Numbered from the stretch's first letter, positions 6,134 through 61,580 are shown. The stretch: 64,000 bases of DNA from an uncultured Candidatus Saccharibacteria bacterium (GCA_964447105.1 CAYURH010000001.1:3139-67138), one strand, 5' to 3'. Notes: generated from the sequence alone by a model not told the origin. A program made the numbers and translations.

Positions 6134-7297
6134 CTATCGAGGGCTCAGCACCAACCGATCCATGCGCTGCAGTAGCCTGCCGGCCGGTTTGACTTCGACG
6201 ATCTGCCAGTGTGGCACGTGCGTAAATAATGCGGCAAGTGTTTTGCGCGACACTGTGGCGCTGAGACCAGAGCCGGGACATTCATAGTCCCCAATGCCGA
6301 AGCCGATGTGCCTGTTGAGTTTTGTGCGGAGCGGGTTATAGACATCCGGGTGTTCGAACAGCGCATCGCGATTGGCGCTCGAAAAGCACACATCCACCAT
6401 TTGCCCCGGCCATAGCGAAGTCTTGTCCAGCAACGCCGGGCGCCGCACTCGCAGCACTCGACACTTGGCCGGGGTCGCAAAACGAATGGTTTCCTGATAG
6501 GCACGCGTTAGCACCCTCCCACCGCCATTGACCGCGTCGTCGTAAACCTCTTCTAGCACAGTCGATGGCTGGTCGTCCATAGTGTGCAGCAGTGTCCATG
6601 CCGCACAAATGGTGTACGAGGTGGTGATAGTAGCGCTGATCATGATGAAATACCACAGCGCGGCCCTGTCGTGGTCGGTGAACAGTTCGGACCGCAATAT
6701 GTGGTCGATGGGCCCATCCAACCCCATAGCCAACCGAGTCCTCGCGTAGTTGTCGTAGAACCGCCACGCATCTTGCTGCCGCGGCAACCCAAACGGCGAC
6801 GAAGCTGCAGACAGTTGATCCATCCAGCCAAAGAACTGGCGGCGCAGGGTGTCGGATTTGAGCCCATCGACGCCCATCAGGTCACAGATCACTTCGTACG
6901 TAATACGATCTGTTACTCGCGCCAAATCGAATGGCACGCCAGCCCTTGCAGCTCTTTCAATGTAATCGTTGGCCATAGACATATCCAGACTGCCTATAGC
7001 TGTCGGCGATATGATGCCTACCAGCGCGTCACGTAAATTGTCGTGCCATTCGCCTTCGGGCTGCACCACCGACCCGCTGAGAACTGGGCTAAACATACGC
7101 AATAGCCACTTAGGCAACGGCAAGATGCTGTGGGTGAAATGCGGACTGGTGAGCGCCGCAATCACCGCGTTGCGGTCGTACAAGCGCAGCGCCGGTAGAC
7201 CATTTACCACCCAGTGCCTTTGCCGGTTGGGGTCGAGCAGCCCGGCGTAGGACACCATGAGCTTCTCGCGGGTCTCGTTCAACAGTTCACCCCTCAT
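6134..7297 (-). CDS. cytochrome P450
   Basis: Heme-binding loop HIGFGIGDYECPGSGLS (FxxGxxxCxG), an ETIR motif (ETIRFATP), and about 390 aa. Confidence 0.9.
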   Translation of the reverse strand: MRGELLNETREKLMVSYAGLLDPNRQRHWVVNGLPALRLYDRNAVIAALTSPHFTHSILPLPKWLLRMFSPVLSGSVVQPEGEWHDNLRDALVGIISPTAIGSLDMSMANDYIERAARAGVPFDLARVTDRITYEVICDLMGVDGLKSDTLRRQFFGWMDQLSAASSPFGLPRQQDAWRFYDNYARTRLAMGLDGPIDHILRSELFTDHDRAALWYFIMISATITTSYTICAAWTLLHTMDDQPSTVLEEVYDDAVNGGGRVLTRAYQETIRFATPAKCRVLRVRRPALLDKTSLWPGQMVDVCFSSANRDALFEHPDVYNPLRTKLNRHIGFGIGDYECPGSGLSATVSRKTLAALFTHVPHWQIVEVKPAGRLLQRMDRLVLSPR

Positions 7298-7439
7298 ACA
7301 AGTTTCACGCCTAGCGACTACCAAGCGATAGCATTATGGTATAGACTTTTATGCAGTTTATAAAGCGACCGCAAAAACCAATATTTTGCCCACACAGCAC
7401 AAAAACTGCTATGCTATGTCATAGTTAATAAGCATAAAC

Positions 7440-14209: not shown

Positions 14210-14293
14210 TGGTGCGCGAGAGAGGACTTGAACCTCCACGCCTTGCGGCACTAGCTCCTAAGGCTAGCGTGTCTACCATTCCACCACTCGCGC
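14210..14293 (-). tRNA. tRNA-Leu (anticodon UAG), type II with long variable arm, encoded CCA
   Basis: GCGCGAGTGGTGGAATGGTAGACACGCTAGCCTTAGGAGCTAGTGCCGCAAGGCGTGGAGGTTCAAGTCCTCTCTCGCGCACCA folds with a 7-bp acceptor stem, a 3-bp D stem, anticodon loop CTTAGGA, and T-loop TTCAAGT. Confidence 0.9.
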
Positions 14294-25006: not shown

Positions 25007-25900
25007 CTATTTTGCGTCGACAGGGCGCTGCTGTTGTGTCTGCGGTTTGCGACGAGCGTGATACGCGCGCATAGGACGAGGTTGGGCGCGATTTGCTTGC
25101 GTCTGCTGGTTGGTACTGGTACCGTTCGCAGCATTGATCATGCGCTGCTCGGGCGAAACATTGGATGGACGCGCAGGACGCTCCTGCGGGCGCGACTGCT
25201 GTTTCTGTACTGGTTGTTGCTGTTGGTGATGCTGCTGTACTTGTTCGGGTTGCGCTGGCTTGGGTGCGTTGGCGGGCAATACGGCAAACATCATCTTGCC
25301 GGCTTGAGTCTGTAGCATGCGGCTAAATTCTACTTGGATACGCTGGCCCACCATGTGAGCGGCTTTTTCGACCACCACCATAGTGCCGTCTTCGAGGTAA
25401 CCCACGCCTTGGGTTTTGTCTTGGCCTACCTGAGTAATTTTGAGTTCGATTCGTTCGCCAGGCAAACGTTGAGGGCGCAGAGCGTGCGCTAATTCGTTGA
25501 CATTAAGTACGGTCACACCTTCAATCTGGGCAACTTTGTTCAGGTTGTAGTCGGTCGTGTAGAGCATGCCGCCGTGCAGTTTGGCGAGGGCAATCAGTTT
25601 GTCGTCGACTTCTTTAACAGCGGGAAATTGTTCGCGCGCGATTACCACCGTGGTGCGGCGCAAATCTTGCAGGTTGCGGATCACATCCAGACCAAACCGG
25701 GCACGCTCGCGCTTCATGCTGTCGCCGTTGTCGGCTAAATATTGCAGCTCGGCAATCACAAACTGTGGCACCACTAAACGCTTGGTTGCAAAACCAGCTT
25801 TGGCGATATCAAGGATACGGCCGTCAATAAGTGAGCATGTGTCGAGAATCATCGAACGTTCACTATCCGACGGGCGTTTCTTCTTTTTAAATGGATTCAT
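25007..25900 (-). CDS. PIN/TRAM domain protein (YacL-like) with Q/P-rich low-complexity C-terminus
   Basis: N-terminal PIN domain (ILDTCSLIDGRI) and a TRAM-like domain (VGYLEDGTMVVV). It lies downstream of radA, as yacL does in Firmicutes. Confidence 0.7.
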   Translation of the reverse strand: MNPFKKKKRPSDSERSMILDTCSLIDGRILDIAKAGFATKRLVVPQFVIAELQYLADNGDSMKRERARFGLDVIRNLQDLRRTTVVIAREQFPAVKEVDDKLIALAKLHGGMLYTTDYNLNKVAQIEGVTVLNVNELAHALRPQRLPGERIELKITQVGQDKTQGVGYLEDGTMVVVEKAAHMVGQRIQVEFSRMLQTQAGKMMFAVLPANAPKPAQPEQVQQHHQQQQPVQKQQSRPQERPARPSNVSPEQRMINAANGTSTNQQTQANRAQPRPMRAYHARRKPQTQQQRPVDAK

Positions 25901-25915
25901 CTGACTCCTTAGGAA

Positions 25916-27271
25916 TTAATTCTTTTTGAGAAATGCGTTGAGAGCATCACGCATCGAGGCCGTGGGGCGCAAGTATGCATGTTTTTTGCTCATGCGTGGC
26001 CCAATGGCAAACGTAAAGCCCAATTTTTTGGCTTCAGCCATACGTTTATCTGGCTGTAGCACGCTGCGGATTTCACCGCTTAGACCTACTTCACCAAACA
26101 CGACAGCTCCGGGGTCGAGCGCTAACTGTTTGGCGGCAGATGCTATAGCCATGCATACCGCCAAATCAGCCGCTGGGTCTTGTAGTTTGATGCCGCCTAC
26201 GACATTGATATAAATGTCGCTTTCAGATAATTGCAGCTTGGTGCGGCGCTCGAGCACAGCAACCAACAGGTTAAGGCGGTTAAGATCAAACCCTGAGGCT
26301 GTGCGCTTAGGATACCCGAAATGCGTCGGATTGACAAGTGCTTGAATTTCCACCAGCAGTGGGCGATTGCCTTCCATGGTAGCCAGCACCACTGACCCAT
26401 CGCTGCTCAAACGCTCTTCGAGCAGTGCAGCAGATGGATTAGTAACGGGGGTGAGCCCGGCGTCGTTCATCTCAAATATAGCTGCTTCGCTGGTAGAGCC
26501 GTAGCGGTTTTTGATAGCGCGCAACACCTTGAAACCGCCATATCTGTCACCTTCGAGGTTGAGCACAACATCCACCATGTGTTCCAGGACTTTTGGTCCA
26601 GCTATACTCCCCTCTTTGGTAACATGCCCCACCAGCAGCAGTGCGGTGTTGCTGGCTTTGGCAGCTTGCGTGAGCAGGTTGGCTGAATTGGTAATCTGCC
26701 CCACACTCCCTGGAGCCGAGGCGATGGCCGACATCGACAACGTTTGGATAGAGTCCACGATCACTAATTTGTAGGCTCCACTGCGGATGGTAGCAGCAAT
26801 GTCGTCGGCCGATGTCGATGATGCCAAATGCAAATCTTGGTGGCTCGCACCCAATCGCTGTGCTCGTACTTTTACCTGGCCTGCCGACTCTTCGCCACTT
26901 ATGTACAACACCGGTGCATGAACCGCGGCCTGCGACGACAGCTGCATGAGCAGCGTAGACTTACCAATACCTGGTTGGCCGGCGATCAGCACCACACTCG
27001 CAGGCACAATCCCCCCACCCAGTACCACATCAACATCTGGCAAACCCGTACTCAGGCGACCAGCTTGATCGCTCGGTGTCACAGCATCAATGGCTTGGGT
27101 GGCCAAAGCTTTGCCTTGACTACTCGACACAGCGTTGGCACCAACGCTGACTCCACCCGCTTCTTCGACAAAACTGTTCCACGCCCCACAGTTATCGCAA
27201 CGACCGGCCCATTTGGCCCGAATGGCGCCACATTGTTGACAGACAAACTGAGATATAGGTTTTTTCGGCAT
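25916..27271 (-). CDS. radA: DNA repair protein RadA/Sms
   Basis: Zinc finger CQQCGAIRAKWAGRCDNCGAWNSF, Walker A GQPGIGKSTL, KNRYG motif, and a Lon-like C-terminal domain. Confidence 0.95.
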   Translation of the reverse strand: MPKKPISQFVCQQCGAIRAKWAGRCDNCGAWNSFVEEAGGVSVGANAVSSSQGKALATQAIDAVTPSDQAGRLSTGLPDVDVVLGGGIVPASVVLIAGQPGIGKSTLLMQLSSQAAVHAPVLYISGEESAGQVKVRAQRLGASHQDLHLASSTSADDIAATIRSGAYKLVIVDSIQTLSMSAIASAPGSVGQITNSANLLTQAAKASNTALLLVGHVTKEGSIAGPKVLEHMVDVVLNLEGDRYGGFKVLRAIKNRYGSTSEAAIFEMNDAGLTPVTNPSAALLEERLSSDGSVVLATMEGNRPLLVEIQALVNPTHFGYPKRTASGFDLNRLNLLVAVLERRTKLQLSESDIYINVVGGIKLQDPAADLAVCMAIASAAKQLALDPGAVVFGEVGLSGEIRSVLQPDKRMAEAKKLGFTFAIGPRMSKKHAYLRPTASMRDALNAFLKKN

Positions 27272-27293
27272 ATATTTATAGTGTAACGGAACT

Positions 27294-27322
27294 TTGACTA
27301 AAACATAAATTAAACGTATAAT
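27294..27322 (+). promoter_or_regulatory. consensus sigma-70 promoter
   Basis: TTGACT-17 nt-TATAAT, followed by a GAAAGGAG RBS and the ATG at 27363. Confidence 0.5.
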
Positions 27323-27362
27323 ATTCCCCGGTAAACCTCAGGGATTGAAAGGAGCGGGACAC

Positions 27363-28286
27363 ATGTCCTCCTCTCTTGCTGGACCCGCCATGGTGGTGGG
27401 CACATTGCTCCTGGTCGTGCTGGCCGTATGGGTCGCAGCACGGTACCGGAGCAACCGCAAGGCCAAGTTCGAGCGTCAGAAGAAGATCGCCTTCGAATCC
27501 GTGCGCGAGCAGATCGAGTTACTGAGACAGGGCGATGACCAGATGTACGAGCTGCTGGGGGAGAGCCACAGCGAACTGTGGCGAGAGCTCTCCAGCAAGT
27601 ACGCAAACACGACCGGCTGGGCCAGCCTGGTCGACGCACGTGGTAGTGCAATCCGGGCCTACGAGCTGTCCACCGAGAAAGCGGTGCGCGATGAAACGCT
27701 CACCGCCTACACGACGTGGATGAGGTGCCCCGACGAACTGTCGGCGTACGAGGAGCTGCAGTTGTTCACGAGGTTCCTGGAGCTTCGGCGCGGGCTCCAG
27801 TACAGCATTGATGACGTCAACCGGGTAACCGGCGGCGACCTGCAGCTCACGGAGGTTCTGAACGACCTCCTGATGCGTACCATGGCCGAGTTGCGTACTG
27901 GCGCCGAAGCTGGATCACGCGAGGACTTCGAGAAGGCCCAGAACCTGCTCGACCAATGCGCGATCTACTTCTACCGCGGCCTTCACCCGGCGCACATCAA
28001 GCCCGGCGGCTGGAGCCGCATCGAGGCCCAGCACCTGCTGCGGATCAACCCAGACCATACCGACTACAAACCGCTGCGGGATGCTGGCGCACTGCTGGCA
28101 GCCCGTGAGGCACTGGCCTCCAGGAACGAAGGTGGGCAGCTCAACATCTGGCTGGTCAAGATGGTCCTGGCCTGGTGCCACAGCAACACGAGCATCCGAG
28201 CCCAGGTCGGCGATGACAACATCAACGCCTTGGCCGACCTGGTGCTGTACCATGCGCGACTGACGGGAATCCCCATCCCCGCCTGA
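27363..28286 (+). CDS. high-GC hypothetical protein with N-terminal membrane anchor and cytoplasmic domain, island family member 1
   Basis: MSSSLAGPAMVVGTLLLVVLAVWVAA followed by a polybasic stretch (RYRSNRKAKFERQKK), then about 270 aa. High GC3 codon usage. Confidence 0.55.
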   Translation: MSSSLAGPAMVVGTLLLVVLAVWVAARYRSNRKAKFERQKKIAFESVREQIELLRQGDDQMYELLGESHSELWRELSSKYANTTGWASLVDARGSAIRAYELSTEKAVRDETLTAYTTWMRCPDELSAYEELQLFTRFLELRRGLQYSIDDVNRVTGGDLQLTEVLNDLLMRTMAELRTGAEAGSREDFEKAQNLLDQCAIYFYRGLHPAHIKPGGWSRIEAQHLLRINPDHTDYKPLRDAGALLAAREALASRNEGGQLNIWLVKMVLAWCHSNTSIRAQVGDDNINALADLVLYHARLTGIPIPA

Positions 28287-28408
28287 CGCGCAACGCGCGT
28301 GGAGTGGGGTGCCAGAACGGCGCCCCACTCTGCGAAAAGAGGCATTATATTGACACCTTTCCCATAAGATACTTAAATACCACTACACCTAAGAAGGGAT
28401 GGTGACGG

Positions 28409-29341
28409 ATGTCGAGCCTCGACATCTTGGGCCTCACGGCGACAGCGTTGATCGTGATGGTCATGGCTGGAACCGTGCGGCTGGCCGCAAAGAAGCGCAC
28501 TCACAAGCGCGCCATACAGCAGCAAAAGAATGAGCAAGAAGCGTTCGAGAGTCGCCTGGCCACGGCGAGACTCGCCCAGGAACAGTGCGAATTCATGGCT
28601 CTGATCACTCGAGTACACCATTGTGATCGATCCGCTGTTGCGGCGCTGCAGAGCGAGCTGTGGGTTATCTACATCGAGCAGGACGCCGAGCGTCAACGGC
28701 TGGCAGCAAGCGCCATTGACTACTGCGAGCTGATGCTCGCTGGCTACGCCGCCAAAGACATGTTGATAGGCATCGACGTATTGGAGACGGATGCGCCAAT
28801 CAGCGAGCGAATTGAGCGACTCGACCAGCTGATCATGCACCTCTACAGAGTCAGCGAGGAGTGGCGCAGATGGATCTATGTAACCCATGGCATCTCCGTC
28901 GCAGTACTGGAAGAAGAGCTTGAAAAATGGGAAGGAGCATACCTGGCTGAGCTGGTAGAGCAAGCTCTGTCAGGCGACCTCGTCGCCATGCGCGAAGCCG
29001 TGAGGAGACACACGGAAGACGAGGATGCCGAGCCCGACTACTTCCCTGCCGGCTGGAACCAAGCGGTCCTGCTGCACTATGGTTACACCGCGGAGCCGTG
29101 GATGTGGGATCTGTCAGAGCTAGCCATTGTGCGGCAACCGATGGGTCTAGCCATGCTGGCCGGACAAGTACTCGTCTACGACGGGGGCACGTGGCTCAAC
29201 CGCCTACCACTCCATGTGGTGGGCTGGGCGGCCATCGTGCTGTCGCACGGCACAGAAGCTCGCGAGCAGGTGGGGGATCACGTTTGGGCTCAGCTCATGT
29301 TGGTGGTGGCTCACCACCAACAAGTTGGAGACGACATGTAG
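28409..29341 (+). CDS. high-GC hypothetical protein with N-terminal membrane anchor, island family member 2
   Basis: TM helix, then KKRTHKRAIQQQK. It shares short motifs with member 1 (AFES, QVGDD/QVGDH). Own promoter TTGACA-17 nt-TTAAAT and an AGAAGGGA RBS. Confidence 0.55.
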   Translation: MSSLDILGLTATALIVMVMAGTVRLAAKKRTHKRAIQQQKNEQEAFESRLATARLAQEQCEFMALITRVHHCDRSAVAALQSELWVIYIEQDAERQRLAASAIDYCELMLAGYAAKDMLIGIDVLETDAPISERIERLDQLIMHLYRVSEEWRRWIYVTHGISVAVLEEELEKWEGAYLAELVEQALSGDLVAMREAVRRHTEDEDAEPDYFPAGWNQAVLLHYGYTAEPWMWDLSELAIVRQPMGLAMLAGQVLVYDGGTWLNRLPLHVVGWAAIVLSHGTEAREQVGDHVWAQLMLVVAHHQQVGDDM

Positions 29342-29444
29342 CAACCGCCCACAGAGGGGCGTCGCCATACGCGCGACGCCCCTCTAGAATAGACTGAAAT
29401 TATATACCATGATATTATAACCACGCGCAAAATCACCACTACGA

Positions 29445-30158
29445 TTGCGAGGTCTCACGTTGCTGAGCCTTATCGTCGCCCTACTGGCGGTTGCAGCATG
29501 CATCATAACTGCTGGTGTGCTGCACCAGCGCCGTCGCTCACGCCGCACACGCAGCGAAAGGCTGCACGAAGCATTGACCGTATGGGGAGGCCAGTCGGGG
29601 TTCGTCACACCCATGGTGCGACTTACTCTGCTCCAAAACCTACTGGCCGCAATTACACAGACGGGCACCATGCCAGCGGGCTATTCACAAGGCGGCCTGC
29701 TCCTGGACCTCAACCCGTTACTCGAAGAATGCTCCGCGGAACTCTGGCAACAGGCCAGTCGACCGGGCGGCGAAGAGGCGCTCTTTGCGCTCTTCGACCT
29801 CATCGTCAGCACGGCGCCCAGTACCCAGCAGTACTACGGCCTGCAGCCCACAACACTGCAGTGGCCGACCGAGTACGAACGAGTTCTGTGTCTCATGGTG
29901 GATGTGCCAACGGTGGAGCAATTTCCGTCGCTCATTGGCAGCGACCTGCTGCGCACGATGACCGCCGAGCAGGCCCGGGTGATGCACGTCGATGCCATAG
30001 GGTATAACAACTGGGTGTTGGGGATCAAACTCCTGGCGCTCACCGAGCACCACAAACGCACCTGGGTCGAGTGGCCACGAACCGTGGATCATTTCCACCT
30101 GATCCAGATGATCATGCGCCTACGAGCCGCAGCGCGCGATGCCTGGCTGCAATCTTAG
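29445..30158 (+). CDS. high-GC hypothetical protein with N-terminal membrane anchor, island family member 3 (start uncertain, TTG)
   Basis: LLSLIVALLAVAACIITAGVL followed by HQRRRSRRTRSER, then about 200 aa. Confidence 0.45.
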   Translation: MRGLTLLSLIVALLAVAACIITAGVLHQRRRSRRTRSERLHEALTVWGGQSGFVTPMVRLTLLQNLLAAITQTGTMPAGYSQGGLLLDLNPLLEECSAELWQQASRPGGEEALFALFDLIVSTAPSTQQYYGLQPTTLQWPTEYERVLCLMVDVPTVEQFPSLIGSDLLRTMTAEQARVMHVDAIGYNNWVLGIKLLALTEHHKRTWVEWPRTVDHFHLIQMIMRLRAAARDAWLQS

Positions 30159-30166
30159 CGCACCCA

Positions 30167-30203
30167 CAGGCCCGAGCCGGGAACACTCCCGCGCTCGGGC
30201 CTG
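30167..30203. terminator. bidirectional GC-rich hairpin terminator
   Basis: CAGGCCCGAGC-N15-GCTCGGGCCTG, a perfect 11-bp stem between convergent genes. Confidence 0.55.
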
Positions 30204-30218
30204 GGCGTACAACAAAAC

Positions 30219-31208
30219 TTATTGTGCTGGAACTGGTTGGTACTGGCTATTCAAACTCTGATATAGATTATTTTGCGCTGCTGCTTCGTTATTGCGCGTG
30301 GCCACCAGCGCGTTGTACTGAGTTACTAAATCACGCGTCTTGATAGCAAGAGAATTATACGCATTTACTTGCGCGTTGTAGCCAGGTACAGCCTGATTGT
30401 ATGCGGCCACGTCTGACTGGCGTAATTGATCCAATTCGCTCGACCGCTGCTCAAGCGACTTCTTGCGTTCGTCGAGTTGAGTATAGTTAGTGTCGATCTG
30501 CTGTTTGATACTCGCCAACTGCTTATCATACGCCGCTATCCGTTCCTGGGACGCCGTAAAAATGGCGCGATAGGCTTGCGCATAGGCTACTACTTTGCTG
30601 CGATCGCTAAAATACTGACCGTAGTATTGCTCGAGCTCCGGGTCGAGCCCACTGTATTCGGTGCCGATGATGGAATGCATCTCGTTGAGTAAATCATCGG
30701 GTTCAGTACGACTATAAAGGGCGACAAGTTCATTTAGGTGGTCGTCGCGGATTTTGCCCAGCTGATCTTGTAGCAAGCCATTGACCCTACTCCGCGTTTC
30801 GCCGTCGAGCCGTTCATACGCAGCGTGAAGCATTTCGTGCGCTGCCGTCACCTCTTTGACACCGGCGAGCTGCGGGTTAACAACGTCAAAAATATAAATA
30901 TGCTGCGTCACATAACACCCCAGCACAATGGTTTGCTCACCCGTGCTGCTGCAGCTTTGATTAAATTTTTGGCTATCCTGCACTTGTGGGTCAGATACAT
31001 AAAACATATCGCGGCCCCGCCCAGTCATGCTCGTATTGTTTGCTAGTTGCAGCGCGGCCGCCGACGGCTTGTATTGCAGCAGCGCCCACCAATCCAATAC
31101 GGCCTGTTTGTTGAGCACTACCCACACTGCGCCAGCAATCAAAGCCAGGCTAACACCCAGGTTCACAATCCCCCAACCAACAGACCAACGCGAGCGAGTA
31201 ATAGGCAT
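30219..31208 (-). CDS. membrane-anchored putative zinc metallopeptidase (HExxH) with C-terminal coiled-coil, Q/N/Y-rich
   Basis: N-in TM anchor (RSRWSVGWGIVNLGVSLALIAGAVWVV), an HEMLH motif (VTAAHEMLHAAYERL), and a long heptad-like C-terminus. GC content is near the backbone level. Confidence 0.5.
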   Translation of the reverse strand: MPITRSRWSVGWGIVNLGVSLALIAGAVWVVLNKQAVLDWWALLQYKPSAAALQLANNTSMTGRGRDMFYVSDPQVQDSQKFNQSCSSTGEQTIVLGCYVTQHIYIFDVVNPQLAGVKEVTAAHEMLHAAYERLDGETRSRVNGLLQDQLGKIRDDHLNELVALYSRTEPDDLLNEMHSIIGTEYSGLDPELEQYYGQYFSDRSKVVAYAQAYRAIFTASQERIAAYDKQLASIKQQIDTNYTQLDERKKSLEQRSSELDQLRQSDVAAYNQAVPGYNAQVNAYNSLAIKTRDLVTQYNALVATRNNEAAAQNNLYQSLNSQYQPVPAQ

Positions 31209-31294
31209 TAGTTTTATTGTATCGCAGGTTTGACGTGATACAAATTTTAAATTATAGTATGCATTACGCTCAACGCTCATGAGAGGAAAATCGT

Positions 31295-31963
31295 ATGGAC
31301 GGGATACCGGGTTCGCTGCTCATCGGCGCGCTTGCAGTCATCATGCTGTCCGTGGTTTACGTCGGCTATCGCCGGCACGCAGCACGGAGGCGAAAAGGCC
31401 GTCAGCTGGCCCAGAAGTATCTGAATCGGCTCGTGGCCGACGCCAGCAAAGGCAAAGAGTACGCCCTCGACGAACTACGCCACGGCGCTAATGTCCACGA
31501 GCTGTTCATCAAGTTCGACACCGAGGAACGGCGTCTAGCAGCAATCGAGCAGGGCGAGCGAGTCCTGGCCGAGTACACGCCGCACGGCCACTCCTTGGTT
31601 GTGCTATTTAGCCGCTGGATGGACCCAGAGAGAGGCGGCTTCAACGCAGAGATGGAGGCGTGCTTGGAATTCTTCGCAGCGTACGACTCGCTGAAGTACT
31701 CCAAGCCACTGGCCTGTTCGAACATCGGCCTCACCCACGACGAGCTGATCATGAGCTTCAACAGCGCCGTGCGCACCACGTTCGCTGCCTACCTGGGTCT
31801 CGCCCGTACCAAGCGTGGTGACGAGCCGCGATTCCGGGCCGCATTGGACCTACTCAGTCAGGCCAACACCAGCTTCGACCTCAAGACCATCGTGGTCGAG
31901 CGGCTGGAACTACCGGACGACTGGGACGAGCTGTGCCTCCGGTACGGTGCGAACGAGCTGTGA
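31295..31963 (+). CDS. high-GC hypothetical protein with N-terminal membrane anchor, island family member 4
   Basis: LLIGALAVIMLSVVYVGY followed by RRHAARRRKGRQ. GAGAGGAAA RBS and promoter TTGACG-17 nt-TATAGT. Confidence 0.55.
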   Translation: MDGIPGSLLIGALAVIMLSVVYVGYRRHAARRRKGRQLAQKYLNRLVADASKGKEYALDELRHGANVHELFIKFDTEERRLAAIEQGERVLAEYTPHGHSLVVLFSRWMDPERGGFNAEMEACLEFFAAYDSLKYSKPLACSNIGLTHDELIMSFNSAVRTTFAAYLGLARTKRGDEPRFRAALDLLSQANTSFDLKTIVVERLELPDDWDELCLRYGANEL

Positions 31964-31979
31964 GTTTGTGAGCGACGAC

Positions 31980-32011
31980 GGGTACCGGGCGCATCTCCGC
32001 GTCCGGTACCC
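31980..32011. terminator. bidirectional GC-rich hairpin terminator
   Basis: GGGTACCGG-N14-CCGGTACCC between member 4 and clpC. Confidence 0.55.
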
Positions 32012-32023
32012 CAAATAGTAGTA

Positions 32024-34504
32024 TTATTCGCTTTTCAGACTGTAGGTGAGTTCACCTTTGCGTGCGCTCACCGCTATCACACTGCCTTTGGTATAGCGGC
32101 CTTCTAGCAAACCACTGGCGATTTCGTCTTCGACAGTATCTTGTAGCACGCGGCGCAGAGGACGCACTCCATTGTGAGCATCGTAACCTTGGTCGAGCAA
32201 TATTTTGCGAGCTTTGGCATCCACATCCACGGCTACACGTTGGCGATAGAGTCGCTTGCCCAGTTTGGCTAGCTCTACGTCCAAAATCTTGCGGACTTCG
32301 GTTTTGGTGAGCGCACGGAATACCAGAATCTTGTCGAGGCGGTTGATGAGCTCGGGGCGCATCATGCGCTTCAGATCCTCTTTGGCCACTTCTTCGTTCT
32401 GTTCGTGCACGTTTTGGAGTTCGTCCAAATCTTTTTTGGTCTGGGCGCGGAAACCCAAACTCGCTTCACGCTGCATTTTCTCGGCACCCAAATTGCTCGT
32501 AAGAATGATGATGGTATTGGTAAAATCTACTTTACGACCTTTGGCGTCGGTCAGACAGCCATCTTCCATGATTTGTAGCAGCACGTTGAAAATGTCTGGG
32601 TGGGCTTTTTCGATTTCATCGAACAGTACCAGACTATAGGGTTGACGCCGAACTTTTTCGGTGAGCTGCCCGGCGTCTTCGTAACCCACATAGCCGGCTG
32701 GTGCGCCCACCAAACGAGCAGCAGTGTGACGTTCGGCAAATTCGCTCATGTCGATTTTGATCAGTGCGCCCGCGGAGCCAAATAGTTCACGCGCGAGCAC
32801 CCGAGCTAGCTCAGTTTTACCCACACCAGTGGGGCCCATGAACATAAACGAACCAATTGGCCGCTTAGACTGACCAATGCCCGAACGGTTACGCCGAATA
32901 GCCCGCGACACAGCCGCGATAGCATCTTGCTGACCAATGATAGATTTGCCCAAATGTTTTTCCATGTTCAACAGATACGTCGCTTCGGATTTGATCACGC
33001 GTTCTACCGGCACACCGGTCATCATAGCTATCGTTCGAGTTACATCGTCGGCGGTGACAATGAGTTTTTTGCCTTTTTTGGTATCGGCACGCAATTCGCT
33101 AATTTTGGCGGTGATCTGGCTCATACGCGTTTTGTAGTGGGCTGCGCGTTCGTAGTCTTGCGCTTCTACAGCTTCTTCCATGTGGTGTGTCACGCCTTTG
33201 AGTTCACGATTGAGCCGACGGACTTCCACAGGTGCTTTGCCACGATCCACCTTGACTTGTGCTGCAGTTTCGTCCAACACATCGATGGCTTTGTCGGGCA
33301 TGAAACGGTCATTAATATACCGTTTGGCCAAGTGGGCTATGTCCGTCAACACTTCGTCTTCCACACTCACCCCGTGGTGTGATTCGTAGCGATGTTTCAG
33401 ACCTTTCAAAATAGCCACCGTGTCTTTGGTAGTAGGTTCGGGCACCATCACTGTCTGGAAACGACGCTCCAGAGCGGTGTCTTTTTCGATATGTTTACGA
33501 TATTCATCCAATGTGGTGGCGCCAATCAAGCGCAGCTGACCCCGTGCGAGCGCCGGTTTGAGCATGTTGGCCGCATCCATAGCGCCTTCGGCAGCACCAG
33601 CACCCACAAGCAAATGCAACTCATCGATAAATACGATCACATTTTTGTCGTTCACCAGCGTTTCGATCAGCTTCTTGAGCCGTTCTTCGAACTCACCGCG
33701 ATATTTGGTCCCCGCGATCATCCCCGCCAGGTCGAGCACAATGAGCCGCTTATCGAGCAGGTGCTCGGGCACATCTTCGATCGCAATTCGCTGCGCCAGA
33801 CCTTCGACAATAGCGGTCTTACCCACACCTGGTTCACCCAGCAGCACAGGATTATTTTTGGTGCGACGGCCAAGAACAGTGATAATGCGTTTGATTTGTT
33901 CATCGCGCCCCACTACCGGGTCTAGCTCGTTGGCACGTGCTTTGGCTGTAAGATCAATGCCAAAATAGTCCAAAATCGTTTGGTTTTTGTTGCGACGTGG
34001 CGCGGACTGTGTGGTATTGGCGCCGGGTTCGTCGTCTTGGCGCTGGTTGTTTAAATATTGCTCCAGCTCGTCCGTCAATTGGTCGACATCGACGTTCATG
34101 TCGCGCAATAATACGGTGGCGCGAGCGTTTTTTTGGGTCAGTATGCCGTAGAGCATATGCTCGGTACCGCAATAATCTTGGTTGAATTCTTGGGCGATGT
34201 CCCAGCTGAGTTTAAGCGTGAGTTTGGCGGTTTCACTCAAGCCTTTGGCGCCGACGCTCACTACCAACGCACGCGGCGTCAGATTGAGCGCCAACCGAGC
34301 GCGATCAAGCGTGACACCCATGTTGCTCAGCAGCTGTGACGCGACAGCGCCGTCTTGGCTCAATATACCCAGCAAAATATGTTCTGTGCCAATGTAGGCC
34401 GAACCAAGGGAACGAGCGATCCCGTTGGCATATTGCAAGCTCGAGCGAGCGTTGTCGGTGAGATGATTCACAAATTCCAGAAAGTCATCCTGAGACGGTA
34501 TCAT
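32024..34504 (-). CDS. clpC: ATP-dependent Clp protease ATP-binding subunit ClpC-like (class I Clp/Hsp100)
   Basis: Two Clp_N repeats and two AAA+ modules ([16 protein letters not shown]), 826 aa. Confidence 0.9.
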
Positions 34505-34552
34505 ATGTTTATTGTACCTCCAGCGCGATTGTCATAAATTTAGTATAAAAAA

Positions 34553-37309: not shown

Positions 37310-38200
37310 CTACCAGGGGCGTGGTGTTCGTACGCCAGACGGGCCGTACCATCGCCGGAAGGCCGCGTGGACAAAATCGTATTGCGCCTCACCCAGCACT
37401 GCACGCGCGTCACCTTCGGGTTGCGTGTAGTAGGTGTGAAAGCATTCCTTAAAAATGCCGACGGTGCCATGTGTCTCCAGCCAGTGCGTGCGCCAGGAAT
37501 CAATCATGGCGAAGCGAAACAGCACCTCGCCGATCTGGTGGATGATCGCCACCTTCACCCGTTCGGCAAACTCTGGTTCGGTGCAGTCGTACGGATCGAC
37601 ACGCAGCATTACCTGAGCCCTGGGCGTGGCATGTTCGCCCGGATGCTGCACGATATGGCTGCGAAGCGAATCGCCGGGCTGCACGCTGACATACGAAATA
37701 CCGGCAAACCTACGCACAAACCGATACGGTAGGTCTACCAAAATTCCCAGCATGACACCGAGCGCTAGATTGCCCCAGTCGTTCGGCACCATGTCGAACC
37801 CGCTGTACACCACAAAAAGCGCCGGCTTGGTGTAGTTCAGGTCGTCGAGGCGTTTCTCGACTTGAGCCAGGTCTTGCTCCAGATCTAGGCGTTCGGCACG
37901 TAGCGATTGGAGCGCCCGTTTGAGCGCTCCAGTCTGATGGCCGAGCGTACGGCTTGCCTCGGCATGTTCGTCGCTCTGCTCCTTGAGTGTGGCACTTTTG
38001 GCAGGATCGCGTTCGAGCTGCGCTTGCACGCTGAGCTCACGCGACGCTTCGGCCAGATCGTCGACTCGAGCTTGGAGCGGATCGATTTCTTGCTGAAGCC
38101 GGCGTTCGACCTCCACCATCTGGGGAGGGAGAGGGCGCATTCGCGCACGACGTCGTTTGAGGTCAACGACTTCGAACATCTGCCCTACCAATCCCTGCAT
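37310..38200 (-). CDS. high-GC hypothetical protein with N-terminal coiled-coil
   Basis: GGAGGTG RBS upstream of MQGLVGQ. High GC3. Confidence 0.45.
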   Translation of the reverse strand: MQGLVGQMFEVVDLKRRRARMRPLPPQMVEVERRLQQEIDPLQARVDDLAEASRELSVQAQLERDPAKSATLKEQSDEHAEASRTLGHQTGALKRALQSLRAERLDLEQDLAQVEKRLDDLNYTKPALFVVYSGFDMVPNDWGNLALGVMLGILVDLPYRFVRRFAGISYVSVQPGDSLRSHIVQHPGEHATPRAQVMLRVDPYDCTEPEFAERVKVAIIHQIGEVLFRFAMIDSWRTHWLETHGTVGIFKECFHTYYTQPEGDARAVLGEAQYDFVHAAFRRWYGPSGVRTPRPW

Positions 38201-38243
38201 GTTCACCTCCACAGTGTCTCGTCTCGGGCAAACCCATCATAGC

Positions 38244-38645
38244 ATGATAGTATGGATGATAATGATCTACATAGACGATGACCAATTCCGCCAAATGGTC
38301 GCAGACGCGATTGATGGCATCCCCGAAAAATATGGCGACAACATCCTAAATCTGGCTTTTGTCGTAGAAAACCACCCCAGCCCCGCCCAACGCGAACAGT
38401 TAAAACTGCGCAACGACCAATCACTATTTGGCCTGTACGAAGGCGTACCGCTGCCACAGCGCGGTGCTGGCTACAACCTAGTTTTGCCCGACAAAATCAC
38501 CGTCTTTCGCGACACAATTCTGCAATACGCACAGGATGAAGACCAAGTGCGCGAACTCCTCAAGCACACGCTATGGCATGAAGTGGCACACTACTACGGC
38601 CTCGACCACCAAGCCATCGACAAATTGCAAGACAAAGATAAATAA
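38244..38645 (+). CDS. zincin-like metallopeptidase family small protein (HExxH near C-terminus)
   Basis: LWHEVAHYYGLDH motif. Size and layout resemble small cytoplasmic Zn-peptidase-like proteins. The start is uncertain (ATGs at 38244, 38256 and 38262). Confidence 0.55.
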   Translation: MIVWMIMIYIDDDQFRQMVADAIDGIPEKYGDNILNLAFVVENHPSPAQREQLKLRNDQSLFGLYEGVPLPQRGAGYNLVLPDKITVFRDTILQYAQDEDQVRELLKHTLWHEVAHYYGLDHQAIDKLQDKDK

Positions 38646-38688: not shown

Positions 38689-39381
38689 ATGAGCACCGAT
38701 AGCGAACGCGACCGCGCGTTCAAAAAGGCTCGCCGGACCATCGAACGACTCATGGGCGCAGCTGATCTGGACCGGGCCTATTCGCTCGCCAGACTGCTCG
38801 TCGTCAACCACGGCCAGCGCGCACAGTCGTGGTACCTGCTGGCGCTGATCTGCACCATGCAAGACAAGGAGCAGGAAGCGTCGACCACTCGCGACACCGC
38901 TGCGCTCTGTACCGACCACACCCCGTACACCGACGGTGACATGCGGCGCGACGTGCTGCTGGGATGGTTGGACTGGCGCAAGCCGGACCAGCGGTTCTGG
39001 CTGTTGCTCGCGGGCATCCGAAAGCTATGCGAGGGTGGTGACGAAGACCGTTCAAGCTACCTGGCCATGGTGGAGGGGCGGATCCGATACGCTGAAGGCG
39101 ATTTCATCGGCGCGAGCAGCGCCCTGTGGCTCGCCCACAGCAATCTGCAAAACTCGCAGTGGCGGTACGGCACATTGTTGCCGTACCTCAAGGCGCTGAT
39201 CATGGGTGGCACCACCTCACGGATCTTCCTGAACGAACTGTTCATCATGATCGTTGACGGTGCCGCCGAGTACGGCTCGCCGCGTGATATCCAGCGCGCC
39301 CGGCACTGCATACGCGGCAAGAGCGCGTGCAAGCGCGACGACCTGTGGCAGCGTATCACCGGCCGCCTGGGCTGGAACTGA
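38689..39381 (+). CDS. high-GC hypothetical protein
   Basis: 230 aa. Extended -10 (TGTTATAAT) and an ACGGAG RBS. Confidence 0.45.
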   Translation: MSTDSERDRAFKKARRTIERLMGAADLDRAYSLARLLVVNHGQRAQSWYLLALICTMQDKEQEASTTRDTAALCTDHTPYTDGDMRRDVLLGWLDWRKPDQRFWLLLAGIRKLCEGGDEDRSSYLAMVEGRIRYAEGDFIGASSALWLAHSNLQNSQWRYGTLLPYLKALIMGGTTSRIFLNELFIMIVDGAAEYGSPRDIQRARHCIRGKSACKRDDLWQRITGRLGWN

Positions 39382-40474: not shown

Positions 40475-40867
40475 CTACTCGGCCTCGTCCTTGGCGGGCA
40501 AAGGGTACAGCTGCCGGAACGAGCTGTATGTGGGGTTTATGCCACGTAGTTTGGGCGGTATGACGTGCCCGACGAACGAACGGCCATACCCCGAGTACGA
40601 CACGAAGCTGAGTCCTTGCGCGCAAAAGTCAAAGATCAGCAGTTCGTTTTCGCCGATATACAGCGTGAACTCGCCGTCGCCATGGGGCAAATACAGTGTG
40701 CCCACGCCAGTAGGCCACCCCAGATGTTCCAGGGTATCCATCACTTCTCTGTCGAATTTGGCGTTTACTTCGGCGCCGTGGAACCGCCGCAACGCCGTTT
40801 CGGCGACTTTACAGAGCACCGCACCCGCAACCACCAATCCGGCCACGGTGAACAGCGTTTTCTTCAT
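40475..40867 (-). CDS. secreted hypothetical protein
   Basis: Signal peptide MKKTLFTVAGLVVAGAVLC. Confidence 0.4.
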   Translation of the reverse strand: MKKTLFTVAGLVVAGAVLCKVAETALRRFHGAEVNAKFDREVMDTLEHLGWPTGVGTLYLPHGDGEFTLYIGENELLIFDFCAQGLSFVSYSGYGRSFVGHVIPPKLRGINPTYSSFRQLYPLPAKDEAE

Positions 40868-40973
40868 GTTCACGACAGAACCTCCCGATTGTCGTCGCGA
40901 CACTACTGACTATAGACCACCCGCGCAAACAAAAACAGCCGCAGATCACGCGGCTGTTTGAGTGGAACGACGG

Positions 40974-42616: not shown

Positions 42617-42733
42617 CCGCCGATATTGCTCTGTCGGTAACTGAAATTATTATAAAATACTTACCAAACAATATTGTATTTTAATCGCAAATAGTCTATG
42701 GTGGCTGCAGCGCACATACAAAGGAGGTACCTG

Positions 42734-43144
42734 GTGAGTGAAGCAAGCTGCTTCGAACTCTCAGAAGATGGTCGTACCATCGATATCTTCGGATGGAAAG
42801 GCCACGTCCACTCGAGCGCACGGCTGAATGTGGAAATCCGCGACGCCGTGGCAGCTGGACTCCACTCTGTTGAGAAGCCCGGTGGCGACCTACGATTCGT
42901 TGTGGCGCCTGCCGATGCCGCACAGATGTTCGACTGCGGGTTCCTCAACCCGAAGAACCTGGCGCGCGCCACCCCGTTCGTTCAGGGTGATGTCCGCGGC
43001 TTCGACATCGCCCTGAACTCCAGCGACGAACTCGATCCGCTAGCCCGTAGCTGGCCGAGCTACGGCCTGACCACCATTCGTGTGATCAGCCACGGCAAAG
43101 GCCGGATGGTCGAGGTCATCGAATCGGCGGCAGGAGCCGCCTAG
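42734..43144 (+). CDS. high-GC hypothetical protein
   Basis: AAGGAGG RBS followed by a GTG start. Promoter TTGTAT-17 nt-TATGGT upstream. Confidence 0.45.
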   Translation: MSEASCFELSEDGRTIDIFGWKGHVHSSARLNVEIRDAVAAGLHSVEKPGGDLRFVVAPADAAQMFDCGFLNPKNLARATPFVQGDVRGFDIALNSSDELDPLARSWPSYGLTTIRVISHGKGRMVEVIESAAGAA

Positions 43145-45919: not shown

Positions 45920-46927
45920 ATGCCACAAAAAGCAAAAAAGACAAGGGTAGATAAACATCGGGCGCACGTAAAGCGCCTGCATAAACTGCGCGTCGTATGG
46001 TTTGGCGTGCTTATATTTGGCCTAGCATTTGTTCAGGTCGCCTACCACGTACAACAAGCCAGCGCCAGCAGTCACGGCGTACTAGCCTATGCCACAAGTA
46101 TGAGCATCGGCGATTTGGCGACGCTAACCAATCAGCAACGCGCCCAATACGGCAAACCTGCGCTGCAACTCAACAGCAAACTCAATACCGGCGCCCAAAA
46201 CAAAGCCAACGACATGATTGCCAAAGACTATTGGTCACATGTCAGTCCTGACGGCACGCAGCCTTGGTATTTCTTTACGTCTGCCGGCTATGCATACAGT
46301 TCAGCTGGCGAGAACCTGGCATATGGGTTTGATACCAGCGCTGGCGCCATAGACGGCTGGATGAACAGCCCAGGGCATCGCGCCAACATGTTGGGCGACT
46401 ACAAAGAAATGGGCTTTGGTATAGCCGACGGACCCAACTATCAGGGCGGGCCGCACACCGTGGTGGTTGCATTCTACGGCGTGCCATCATCTACAGGTAG
46501 CGGGGGAACCAATAAATCAGCTCCGGCGCAAAAATCCACTGCAGCAGCCCCCGCGCCCAAAACTACCACTAAAGCACCAGCCGCCCCCGCTCAGCCTGCT
46601 CCAGCGCCCGCACCGGCCCCCGTGACAGAGCCTGAAAAACCGGTGGCCGAACCCGTTGCCCCTCTAGAAACACACACCGCCGAATCACCCAAACGCGTCA
46701 CCAACATATCTGCCTTGGGCAGCGGCAATGCCACCTGGGCCACTGTGGCAAGCGTGGGATTAGTAGGCGCGACTTCTATCGGCTTTGCCACCACGCACCG
46801 CGAATTGGTACGGCGTGAATGGAAAAAGGGCAAAAAATTCATTGTGTTTCACCCACTCCTTGACGTAGTGGTACTGGGTGGCATAGCGATATTTATACTC
46901 AGCTCAACCGCCGGATTCATCAAGTAG
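45920..46927 (+). CDS. CAP/SCP/PR-1 domain protein with N- and C-terminal TM segments and Pro/Ala-rich linker
   Basis: CAP motifs (HYTQVVW-like: DYWSHVSPDG, GHRANML). Confidence 0.8.
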   Translation: MPQKAKKTRVDKHRAHVKRLHKLRVVWFGVLIFGLAFVQVAYHVQQASASSHGVLAYATSMSIGDLATLTNQQRAQYGKPALQLNSKLNTGAQNKANDMIAKDYWSHVSPDGTQPWYFFTSAGYAYSSAGENLAYGFDTSAGAIDGWMNSPGHRANMLGDYKEMGFGIADGPNYQGGPHTVVVAFYGVPSSTGSGGTNKSAPAQKSTAAAPAPKTTTKAPAAPAQPAPAPAPAPVTEPEKPVAEPVAPLETHTAESPKRVTNISALGSGNATWATVASVGLVGATSIGFATTHRELVRREWKKGKKFIVFHPLLDVVVLGGIAIFILSSTAGFIK

Positions 46928-50766: not shown

Positions 50767-51228
50767 TTACCGTGGCGGCGGGAAGTCTGCCGGCAGGCCG
50801 GTACATTCCCTCGTATCGTCGTACGAGATGAGTATCCTGTACCGCTTGCGCGGATCCAGGTGCACCGTGTTGCTAATGCCGTTAAGCCCTTCCGCCTGCC
50901 GCCACCCTGCTCCGCTATTGATCCAGATGCCGAACGGCACCTGAGTCCAGCTGAAGGTGGCCGCGACGTAATCGCCCTGCTTTGTGAACGTACGCGTTAC
51001 CTCCAGCTGGCGGTTCGCGTCGTACGCGGTCTCTCGGCCATTGCCGACATATACGACAGCAGCTCGGCAGACCTGCGGCTGCGAAGGCTGCGGCTGTGGG
51101 GATGGCCGCGACGACTGCACGGCAGCCGTCGGTTTGGCGCTGGGCGTGGTATCGCCCTGCGAACCGCACCCTCGGGCGCCGACCGCAAGTACGGCAGCCG
51201 ACAATGCGGCTGCCAACCAAATTTTCAT
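50767..51228 (-). CDS. high-GC secreted/lipoprotein, hypothetical
   Basis: Signal peptide MKIWLAAALSAAVLAVGARGC, then a Pro/Gln-rich linker. Confidence 0.45.
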   Translation of the reverse strand: MKIWLAAALSAAVLAVGARGCGSQGDTTPSAKPTAAVQSSRPSPQPQPSQPQVCRAAVVYVGNGRETAYDANRQLEVTRTFTKQGDYVAATFSWTQVPFGIWINSGAGWRQAEGLNGISNTVHLDPRKRYRILISYDDTRECTGLPADFPPPR

Positions 51229-57498: not shown

Positions 57499-57614
57499 AG
57501 TGACCCCCCTTAATGGTGCAAGTATAGCACCCAGCGCGACAATCCAATACTTGCATAGGAATGATTTCGATGTTATATATGTTATTACATGCAAGATTAA
57601 CCCGGGAGGGCAAA

Positions 57615-58091
57615 TTGTCTTCGTATGCACAATTCCTGCGTGTAGATGTCGCCCCCTACAGCGAGAGGATTCGTGAGGCGGTTCTGGCGGCTGTTGAGCT
57701 ACACTCGCCTCTGATCCCCGCGATTCCCGTGTCCGTGTGGGCCGAACGTCTGACGGGGCTTTACAACTCGTCAGCCGACGACAACATCTTGGCTACGGCT
57801 CTGGGCTGGGCCCGGCAGGTCGTCGAAGACGGCGTGCATGACCTGACCAGCCGCTACCTCAGCGAAGAAGCAACACCCCATCTCAGACGGCTGTTCGCCA
57901 ACGCCGTTTACACGGGCGTAGTGGGGCCAACCCTGCGCGCGCCCGCCCAGAAACGCGCTGAACACATCTGCGCCGATCTGCACGCGGCCCTGATGCAGCG
58001 GGTCACCGCCGGCCACGTCGAAGACCTGCCGGCCGCACGCCTGGACATGCAACGGCTGCTGGACCAGGCAATCCGCGACCACCAGCCCTGA
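57615..58091 (+). CDS. high-GC hypothetical protein (TTG start after GGGAGGG RBS)
   Basis: Promoter TTGCAT-17 nt-TATATA upstream. GC3-rich. Confidence 0.4.
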   Translation: MSSYAQFLRVDVAPYSERIREAVLAAVELHSPLIPAIPVSVWAERLTGLYNSSADDNILATALGWARQVVEDGVHDLTSRYLSEEATPHLRRLFANAVYTGVVGPTLRAPAQKRAEHICADLHAALMQRVTAGHVEDLPAARLDMQRLLDQAIRDHQP

Positions 58092-60159: not shown

Positions 60160-60261
60160 CTATTTTATTGTAGCAAATTACCACTCATTGACCAAAGAGT
60201 ATTATTATACTATAATTTGCATCTGGCACATTCAGGCACACAAGCAGGAACGAGAGAACGC

Positions 60262-60705
60262 ATGCGTAGATTCCTTTTGGTCTTCGTCGTTTTGGCAGGT
60301 CTCGGCGGGTTCATCTTCAGCACCCACCTCTACGAGGAGTCGCCTTTCACGACGCGGGGGACTGAGGCGCCGCAGCAGCAAGCGCCGAAGCCCGCGCCCG
60401 GCAAAGACATGGCGACGCTGGTACGCGACCAAGGGTGGCCGGCAGAAGCCGGCTACACCGTCGACAAGTCCGGCGGCGACACGTTCACCCTGCACCTCAG
60501 CAGGCTGCAGTGTCACGCCGTGCTCAAGCGGGTCGGAAGTGACGGCTTCCAGATTGTTGGCTTGTACGCCAACGACAACAGCGACAACCTGACGATCAAC
60601 GAACTTCCGCCGTCGATCAAGGCTGACCTGACCCAGGTCAACCTGAGCTTCGACGGATACGGCAAGCTGCGGCCCAAGATCCTGGCCGGAGTCAAGTTCT
60701 GCTAG
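60262..60705 (+). CDS. high-GC hypothetical membrane-anchored/secreted protein
   Basis: MRRFLLVFVVLAGLGGFIFS anchor. Consensus promoter TTGACC-17 nt-TATAAT at about 60188-60216. Confidence 0.45.
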   Translation: MRRFLLVFVVLAGLGGFIFSTHLYEESPFTTRGTEAPQQQAPKPAPGKDMATLVRDQGWPAEAGYTVDKSGGDTFTLHLSRLQCHAVLKRVGSDGFQIVGLYANDNSDNLTINELPPSIKADLTQVNLSFDGYGKLRPKILAGVKFC

Positions 60706-60819: not shown

Positions 60820-61422
60820 TTACGGCTTCGCCGGTGAACAGAAGCTCAGCTTGCCGTAATCCACGTTGTGCGGATCATCGGCCGCGCTGGCGATGCGCTC
60901 TTCCAAGACGGCGCGACTGATGCCGACTTTGGAAAACGACGGATCGAGGTTGGTCGCCATGGTCACGCCCGTGGGCGTGAGTTGCGGCAGTGCTGGCGTA
61001 TCGCCCGGCGCGATGTACATCAGGCGATAGGACCACTCGCTCAGATCGCCCGGGCGTGGACTGTCGTCATTCACCACTGGGCTGTGCGGAGCTGCCTTGG
61101 TAACCAACTGGAAGACCACGTAGCAAGGCCGCTTGTTGTTGTCGAGTGCCAGCATGTACGTCTTACCGCCGGGCACGTCGTACGTAGCCGACACCGACTT
61201 GGCCGCGCCCAGCGCCGGGGCAGCATGTAGCCTCCACTGGTCGGTGAGCTGGCCAGTTCCGAGCATCCGCGTATACGCTTCGTCACGCGTCTTGCCAGCG
61301 TCACGAGATGCGGCAGCCGACGCCGACACCTTTTGCTCCGGTGTTTTCGGCGGCGGGCTGATGCAGCCAGCGGTCGCACCCAGCACTACAGCCAGGCACA
61401 CCCCTGTCAACAGTTTTCTCAA
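60820..61422 (-). CDS. high-GC lipoprotein, paralog 1 (TTG start)
   Basis: Lipobox LGATAG|C, GAGGGAG RBS, promoter TTGACA-19 nt-TAATAT. About 55% identical in pattern to paralog 2. Confidence 0.55.
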   Translation of the reverse strand: MRKLLTGVCLAVVLGATAGCISPPPKTPEQKVSASAAASRDAGKTRDEAYTRMLGTGQLTDQWRLHAAPALGAAKSVSATYDVPGGKTYMLALDNNKRPCYVVFQLVTKAAPHSPVVNDDSPRPGDLSEWSYRLMYIAPGDTPALPQLTPTGVTMATNLDPSFSKVGISRAVLEERIASAADDPHNVDYGKLSFCSPAKP

Positions 61423-61580
61423 GTAACTCGCTCCCTCGCGAATCGAAGTGATGTTTGCCAAACATATTATTGTTTTAATAAAGTAGGTTGTCAATAAAAT
61501 CTGCGCCCATTAAAAAATCCCCGCTTTAGCGAGGACACGGGTGGGGCAGCTTGCGCAACCCCACCCGCGATTGGTACGAC

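Follow-up and report, generated by a model that had tools for sequence, protein, structure and literature searches.

Between radA and a clpC-type AAA+ ATPase gene, a 64,000-nucleotide stretch of DNA from an uncultured Candidatus Saccharibacteria bacterium (GCA_964447105.1 CAYURH010000001.1:3139-67138; mean GC content 52%; hereafter the window) carries five open reading frames (ORFs), four of which are GC-rich, plus-strand orphan genes: g1 (27363-28286, 307 aa), g2 (28409-29341, 310 aa), g3 (29445-30158, 237 aa, or 232 aa from position 29460 in the public call) and g5 (31295-31963, 222 aa). All four are oriented against the surrounding genes. The fifth, g4 (30219-31208, minus strand), encodes a coiled-coil protein with an HExxH motif, and the native flanks are radA (25916-27271, minus strand; TIGR00416, E 3.5e-155) and clpC (32024-34504, minus strand). 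ORF calling thus reproduces the five genes, at the same positions and between the same two flanks, that had been described in an earlier reading made from the sequence by itself (the sequence-only reading). The closest RadA matches in a scan of a genome collection belong to Saccharibacteria (60-70% identity, against about 48% for Firmicutes), and the host genome is that of a Saccharibacterium and not of a member of the Firmicutes. A metagenome scan with RadA added about 22 further Saccharibacteria loci, none of them nearer; as neither scan returned a RadA above 70% identity, there is no sister genome with which to date insertions.

The four plus-strand genes stand apart from their surroundings in composition, as the sequence-only reading had held. 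Their GC content at third codon positions (GC3) is 0.81 (g1), 0.71 (g2), 0.71 (g3) and 0.78 (g5), a range of 0.71-0.81 against about 0.55 in the neighbouring genes (0.54 in the HExxH gene, 0.54 in radA and 0.57 in clpC). The difference extends to the choice of individual codons: AAG accounts for 67% of lysine codons in the four genes and 19% in the backbone, GAG for 67% and 23% of glutamate codons, and TTC for 88% and 38% of phenylalanine codons, while the arginine codons CGG, CGA and AGR are commoner than in the backbone and tryptophan makes up 2.4% of the four proteins as opposed to 0.5% of backbone proteins. The ribosomal protein L19 gene in the window has a GC3 of 0.52, in line with the backbone; expression-linked codon bias, considered as a cause of the high GC3, is thereby ruled out.

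Composition of this kind raises the question of whether the four are genes at all, given that stop codons are few in GC-rich DNA and that antisense ORFs of 90-190 aa overlap them; the lack of homologues and the poor structure models described below would also suit chance open frames in GC-rich non-coding DNA. We nevertheless hold this explanation to be very improbable. Each ORF fills its segment beyond what is seen in shuffled sequence (P<=0.0045 each), and in g1, g2, g3 and g5 the pattern GC1>GC2<GC3 occurs only in the called frame; this frame-specific pattern, together with ORF length, marks them as real coding sequences. Ribosome-binding sites 8-9 nt 5' of three of the starts and coherent N-termini in all four, each with a transmembrane (TM) helix and a polybasic stretch, speak against chance frames as well.

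The gene among them on the opposite strand has a different history. The sequence-only reading correctly described g4 as a backbone-GC gene (GC3 0.54) for a membrane-anchored coiled-coil protein; it had also assigned the gene to a single five-gene insertion, and this did not survive comparison with related genomes. Homologues of g4 with 30-41% identity occupy the same position and strand in almost every Saccharibacteria locus examined (for example, L003:5231-6241 and L022:6486-7508). In about 35 of about 45 Saccharibacteria loci searched with tblastn, clpC, the g4 homologue and radA are packed on one strand, tens of bases apart, and most of these loci extend to nusA-clpC-g4-radA-(yacL)-pbp. The local order is thus that of the phylum, nusA-clpC-HExxH gene-radA-yacL, and not the Firmicutes-type order previously proposed. 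An alignment of 16 family members contains 27 invariant positions, all of which are retained by the window's g4; among them are two cysteines in the large domain, the motif T-x-x-H-E-x-L-H and a downstream E-x-H-S, so that H124, E125, H128, E176 and H178 of g4 are invariant in 16 Saccharibacteria sequences. The C-terminus of the family is a Q/N-rich coiled coil. Pfam scans of individual members and a profile search against the PDB returned coiled-coil noise only and no peptidase family. The longest g4 ORF extends to 31280, and homologues begin to align near residue 25, which makes Met25, at 31208, the probable start. Basic residues precede the N-terminal helix, from which an N-in/C-out topology is predicted, opposite to that of the four plus-strand proteins. 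Judged by sequence conservation, g4 is a native backbone gene of a conserved Saccharibacteria family and was not inserted.

Because g4 is conserved in place with backbone GC, the insertions must lie on both of its sides, at no fewer than two sites. Genes g1 to g3 lie within the g4-radA spacer, which measures about 2.9 kb here and 25-180 bp in relatives, and g5 lies within the clpC-g4 spacer, which measures about 0.8 kb as opposed to 30-90 bp. Comparison of the clpC-radA interval among relatives found the four genes absent from all of about 45 loci, with no tblastn match to g1, g2, g3 or g5 in any of them, these being distant loci with RadA identities of at most 70%; a tblastn search with the four proteins through the fetched loci of every kind (2.08 Mb) likewise returned nothing. 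The interval does vary in relatives, yet none has GC-rich genes there. In some, clpP lies between the HExxH gene and radA (L005:7577-8158, L021:9283-9903 and L007:1922-2503), and in one a 6-kb insert of backbone GC lies between clpC and the HExxH gene (L017:2892-8684). A single horizontally acquired block of five genes, HExxH gene included, forming a membrane-associated system would account for the clustering of all five between clpC and radA and for the membrane anchor of every product. The chance of its being correct is slight, given the conserved position and backbone GC3 of g4, the reversed topology of its protein and the two invariant cysteines in the large domain of the latter. The four other genes, moreover, occur in no other genome, so that co-occurrence cannot be shown; the earlier description of the genes as a system was accordingly dropped. 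Of the horizontal acquisition that had been claimed for the whole block, the part concerning the four plus-strand genes is supported by their composition and their absence from relatives, and the part concerning the HExxH gene is not.

Abrupt shifts in GC content within a metagenome-derived genome may also be produced by assembly or binning, through the splicing in of GC-rich reads of another organism. Four short contigs, separately assembled from run SRR9179563, nevertheless match the window at 100% identity and extend across the g3/g4 and g5/clpC boundaries; identical independent contigs from the same run across the GC-rich-to-backbone junctions make a chimera unlikely. The switches in GC content also coincide exactly with gene boundaries, the spacers holding promoters and hairpins, and the 64 kb contain at least 10 further instances of the pattern, so that an artefact of this sort is highly implausible. 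Breakpoints of Logan contigs were considered as a possible sign of presence/absence polymorphism and set aside as uninformative, as breaks also fall inside ordinary genes.

Each of the four genes is bounded by candidate expression signals. By consensus match, g1, g2 and g5 each appear to have their own near-consensus sigma-70-like promoter: TTGACT-17-TATAAT at 27294-27322 (plus strand, 11/12 match) for g1, TTGACA-17-TTAAAT at 28351-28379 (plus strand, read directly and below the threshold of the scan) for g2, and TTGACG-17-TATAGT at 31230-31258 (plus strand, 10/12 match) for g5. Likely ribosome-binding sites precede the same three genes, namely AGGAG at 27350-27354, 8 nt 5' of the g1 ATG, GAAGGGA 9 nt 5' of the g2 ATG, and GAGAGG at 31281-31286, 8 nt 5' of the g5 ATG. 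The sequence-only reading had granted a promoter and a Shine-Dalgarno sequence to all four genes; both hold for these three, whereas g3 has a weak promoter match (29390-29418, plus strand, 9/12), a TTG start and no Shine-Dalgarno sequence.

GC-rich hairpins close the four units. They lie after g1 (28298-28334, plus strand; a 16-bp stem with no T-tract), after g2 (29353-29385, plus strand; a perfect 13-bp stem), between the convergent g3 and HExxH genes (30162-30208; stable on both strands) and between the convergent g5 and clpC genes (31980-32011). Their folding energies range from -28 to -38 kcal/mol, with z-scores of -3.7 to -7.5. The perfect hairpin terminators that had been proposed are therefore confirmed as stable hairpins and not as terminators in the classical sense, for none of those after g1, g2, g3 and g5 has a T-tract and none passes a scan for intrinsic terminators. 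Hairpins of the same GC-rich style also occur 3' of some native genes, and those of the four units look like the usual gene-end signal of this genome as opposed to sequences imported together with the genes.

The native genes at the locus may be equipped to tolerate such neighbours. A -10-like TATAAAT stands directly 5' of the radA ATG, and -10-like boxes (TATAAT, TATACT or TACAAT) lie 6-10 nt 5' of the radA, HExxH gene and clpC starts (in the regions 27272-27285, 31209-31225 and 34505-34520, respectively). Of the 23 relatives examined, about 12 have a TAtAcT box 6-10 nt 5' of the radA ATG; loci with a -10-like box at radA include L003, L009, L012, L015, L016, L022, L085-L087, L102 and L103. 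The positions of these boxes suggest that radA, the HExxH gene and clpC are transcribed from their own, possibly leaderless or near-leaderless, promoters. If so, hairpin-bearing units on the opposite strand need not silence the genes downstream.

The proteins encoded by g1, g2, g3 and g5 have one hydrophobic segment each by Kyte-Doolittle hydropathy, at the N-terminus, and in all four there are 0-1 lysine or arginine residues before the helix and 6-7 within the 15 residues after it. In g1, a TM helix at about residues 9-27 is followed by RYRSNRKAKFERQKK and a cytoplasmic part predicted to be all-helical; in g2, the helix is followed by KKRTHKRAIQQQK and a mostly helical predicted cytoplasmic part; in g3, it is followed by HQRRRSRRTRSER; and in g5, by RRHAARRRKGRQ and a predicted cytoplasmic domain. 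By the positive-inside rule, the large domains of the four proteins are predicted to be cytoplasmic (N-out/C-in), and hydropathy and charge counts thus bear out the build that had been attributed to them. When all ORFs of at least 150 aa were scored for this TM-plus-polybasic build, it was found in 4 of 51 window ORFs, exactly g1, g2, g3 and g5, and in 4 of 417 ORFs in related loci (about 1%), three of the latter being TM-anchored YacL proteins; the common build of the four neighbours is well beyond chance. The YacL-type PIN/TRAM gene of the window itself (25007-25900, minus strand) encodes a protein that begins MNPFKKKKRP, without a TM helix plus polybasic stretch; in the YacL-type proteins of some relatives, a polybasic stretch comes after a TM helix at the N-terminus (L009:11381-12364, L010:6761-7453 and L105:1959-2897). 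Single-sequence AlphaFold2 gave poor models of g1 and g2 (pLDDT, the predicted local distance difference test score, 52.7 and 51.5), in which the membrane helix runs on to about residue 65-70 and is followed by more helices; with no homologues from which to build alignments, the models are too poor for comparison or fold search.

Database searches place the four proteins outside any family. Among 5.8 billion clustered proteins, a word-indexed search with g1, g3 and g5 found only self-matches, and their clusters are singletons; an exhaustive HMMER search of 1.84 billion representatives with g2 found itself and three weak matches only. The latter reflect a weak resemblance between residues 210-293 of g2 (29036-29287) and a repeat of about 60 aa in giant proteins of 900-2900 aa (P0011-P0013), with the pattern DLSDV..G.VL.Y.G..W...LSN.GTNTH.QID.H. 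Homology to this repeat was rejected, since the E values of 3e-5 to 7e-4 sum over repeat copies and a single copy is non-significant at database scale. The four concatenated proteins had no tblastn match at E<=1 in phage and plasmid collections, scans of IMG/VR returned nothing, and searches of Pfam, NCBIfam, PHROGs and PADLOC gave nothing above noise. The claim that no family is recognisable therefore stands for these four proteins, profile searches having given nothing credible, and the suggestion of an actinobacterial source finds no homologue anywhere to sustain it.

Shared build and proximity would be expected if a tether gene had been duplicated in place and its copies had diverged rapidly, with an internal process, for instance GC-biased gene conversion in an accessory pool prone to recombination, keeping the GC3 high. 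Such a native, fast-evolving family is the main rival to foreign origin. In its favour are the presence in four neighbours of a build with a background frequency of about 1%, the near-equal lengths of g1 and g2 and the occurrence of 'AFES' at matching positions in both, the native look of the promoters, the failure of every search to find a donor and a tandem pair of GC-rich paralogs elsewhere in the window (48% identity) of which both copies are still GC-rich. The sequences themselves, however, give no sign of common descent: all pairwise BLASTP comparisons among g1, g2, g3 and g5 have E>0.1, alignment scores fall within 2.5 standard deviations of shuffles, hhalign probabilities are at most 1.2%, and the 'AFES' coincidence is not significant (P about 0.02-0.07). 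The short motifs of g1 and g2 that had earlier been taken to indicate a divergent paralog family thus lack a significant signal. The codon dialect of the four genes also differs from that of the backbone in kind and not just in degree, related loci contain no high-GC3 outlier gene, and one of the four copies lies beyond a native gene. Weighing these points, we consider native origin unlikely.

High GC proved not to be confined to the clpC-radA interval. The sequence-only reading was right about the four genes and wrong to regard them as a discrete GC-rich block, as GC3 values of 0.66-0.83 are found in at least 10 further genes dispersed over the window, where the GC-rich class amounts to about one fifth of the genes. 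One of these (6134-7324, minus strand; GC3 0.69) is a cytochrome P450-like gene (Pfam E 6e-6; best PDB match E 3e-14) with a very divergent product, about 24% identical to P450s of actinobacterial plasmids; a P450-like enzyme is unexpected in the reduced genome of a Candidate Phyla Radiation (CPR) bacterium. Other genes with high GC3 lie at 37310-38212, 40475-40903 and 50767-51228 on the minus strand and at 38689-39381, 42698-43144, 57561-58091 and 60217-60705 on the plus strand. The GC-rich paralog pair (60820-61494 and 61581-62183, minus strand; E 4e-52) encodes putative lipoproteins that have in common PKTPEQK-x-SASAAAS after a lipobox-like cysteine, and has no relative in IMG/VR or in any fetched locus. 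Apart from the P450-like gene, the scattered GC-rich genes have no Pfam family. Lipoprotein or membrane signals occur in several of them, and several have a GC-rich hairpin at the 3' end and are oriented against their neighbours. Across 22 related loci, no ORF lies more than 0.15 above the locus median GC3, and the GC-rich class is therefore peculiar to this genome. Two lineage-specific slots of the window hold recognisable genes, a Zincin_1 metallopeptidase-like gene (38157-38645, plus strand; PF06262, E 2e-24) and a gene for a CAP/SCP-domain protein (45920-46927, plus strand; PF00188, E 1e-20).

Taken together, these observations lead us to favour, with some reserve, the interpretation that g1, g2, g3 and g5 are compositionally foreign, self-contained single-gene cassettes that came from a GC-rich donor and encode N-out/C-in membrane tethers. 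Lineage-specific orphan genes would have entered the two short spacers beside the native HExxH gene, at no fewer than two points, after DNA had been taken up from a GC-rich donor not yet sampled, such as a host bacterium or its mobile elements; the relation that usually holds between codon-position GC and genome GC puts the donor at an estimated 60-67% GC. Each unit would comprise an AT-rich promoter of the sigma-70 type, in most cases a ribosome-binding site, an ORF and a strong GC-rich hairpin, and the insertions would be tolerated through the promoters that radA and, apparently, the HExxH gene and clpC have directly 5' of their starts. The product would expose a few residues outside the cell and hold its polybasic stretch and a mostly helical domain of 180-270 residues at the cytoplasmic face of the membrane. 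A precedent for piecemeal acquisition exists in fragments of 0.5-5.7 kb, most of them carrying hypothetical genes, which are reported to have passed between CPR bacteria and other bacteria or phages (PMC10031880).

Several points weigh against this interpretation. The searches made yielded neither a donor nor a homologue for any of the four genes, and at least 13 of at least 14 high-GC3 genes in the window have no family, which is odd for transfer from the well-sampled Actinobacteria. The promoters of the inserted genes look like those of the recipient and not like those of a GC-rich donor. Marks of mobility are missing from the locus, with no flanking direct repeats longer than expected by chance and the only tRNA gene of the window at 14210; readings of the locus as a tRNA-linked island or as an Rfam element were rejected. 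The nearest relatives share only 60-70% RadA identity, which leaves the insertions undatable, and what may be said of the function of the four proteins derives from their architecture. An accessory, membrane-associated role, for example in phage exclusion or in the handling of host contact, is suggested very tentatively, and we would sooner bet against it than for it.

Parts of this arrangement can be recognised in better-known systems. Phage morons are single genes that bring a promoter and a terminator of their own and differ in composition from the genes around them; likewise, each gene here lies between a promoter-like site and a hairpin, is wedged amid genes that are adjacent in relatives and has a deviant composition. 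Unlike morons, the present units are chromosomal, beside clpC, radA and nusA, have no PHROG match and end in hairpins without the T-tract of classical intrinsic terminators. Atypical composition and codon usage and absence from relatives are properties held in common with genomic islands and islets, from which the locus differs in showing no integrase, tRNA, direct-repeat or transposase marks, in comprising two sites on either side of a native gene and in yielding no donor. A likeness to integron cassettes lies in the three short single-gene units that share an orientation and each have an inverted repeat behind them; here, however, each unit has a promoter, and by eye the four hairpin sequences are unrelated and display no attC core, the motif of which is GTTRRRY. 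An integron reading was rejected, and no integrase was noticed among the flanking ORFs, for which no systematic search was made.

With regard to the proteins, ZipA, EzrA and RNase Y are bitopic N-out/C-in membrane tethers, and the four proteins resemble them in outline, with one N-terminal helix that leaves next to no tail outside the cell, a basic juxtamembrane stretch and a large, predominantly helical domain predicted to be cytoplasmic. The YacL PIN/TRAM homologues of L009, L010 and L105 are also alike in build. The four proteins nevertheless show no sequence similarity to any of these families.

Laterally acquired orphan cassettes are already a known kind of thing. What is unusual here is the position of the cassettes on either side of a native gene, within a cluster conserved across the phylum, and their membership of a set of GC-rich orphans that extends through the genome of a CPR bacterium. 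A bolder proposal, which we regard as doubtful, is that the scattered GC-rich orphans and the four genes constitute a new CPR accessory pool, many of whose genes encode membrane proteins or lipoproteins, with the tethers as a new class. It would have the pool imported piecemeal as ready-to-express single-gene units from a GC-rich host or its mobile elements, a step that we think equally questionable, and would have the tethers act at the cytoplasmic face of the membrane in host contact or phage attack, a role to which we assign the same low credence.

The Saccharibacteria are epibionts with tiny genomes, attached to other bacteria that are often GC-rich Actinobacteria, and how they gain genes is poorly understood. 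In the genome described herein, GC-rich orphans stand singly, each running from promoter to hairpin, between housekeeping genes that elsewhere in the phylum are neighbours, which as it stands is a clean yet functionally opaque case of orphan gene acquisition. Were a donor to be found, the locus would provide a concrete case of gene flow into an epibiont, and the proteins may prove relevant to the membrane biology of these bacteria.

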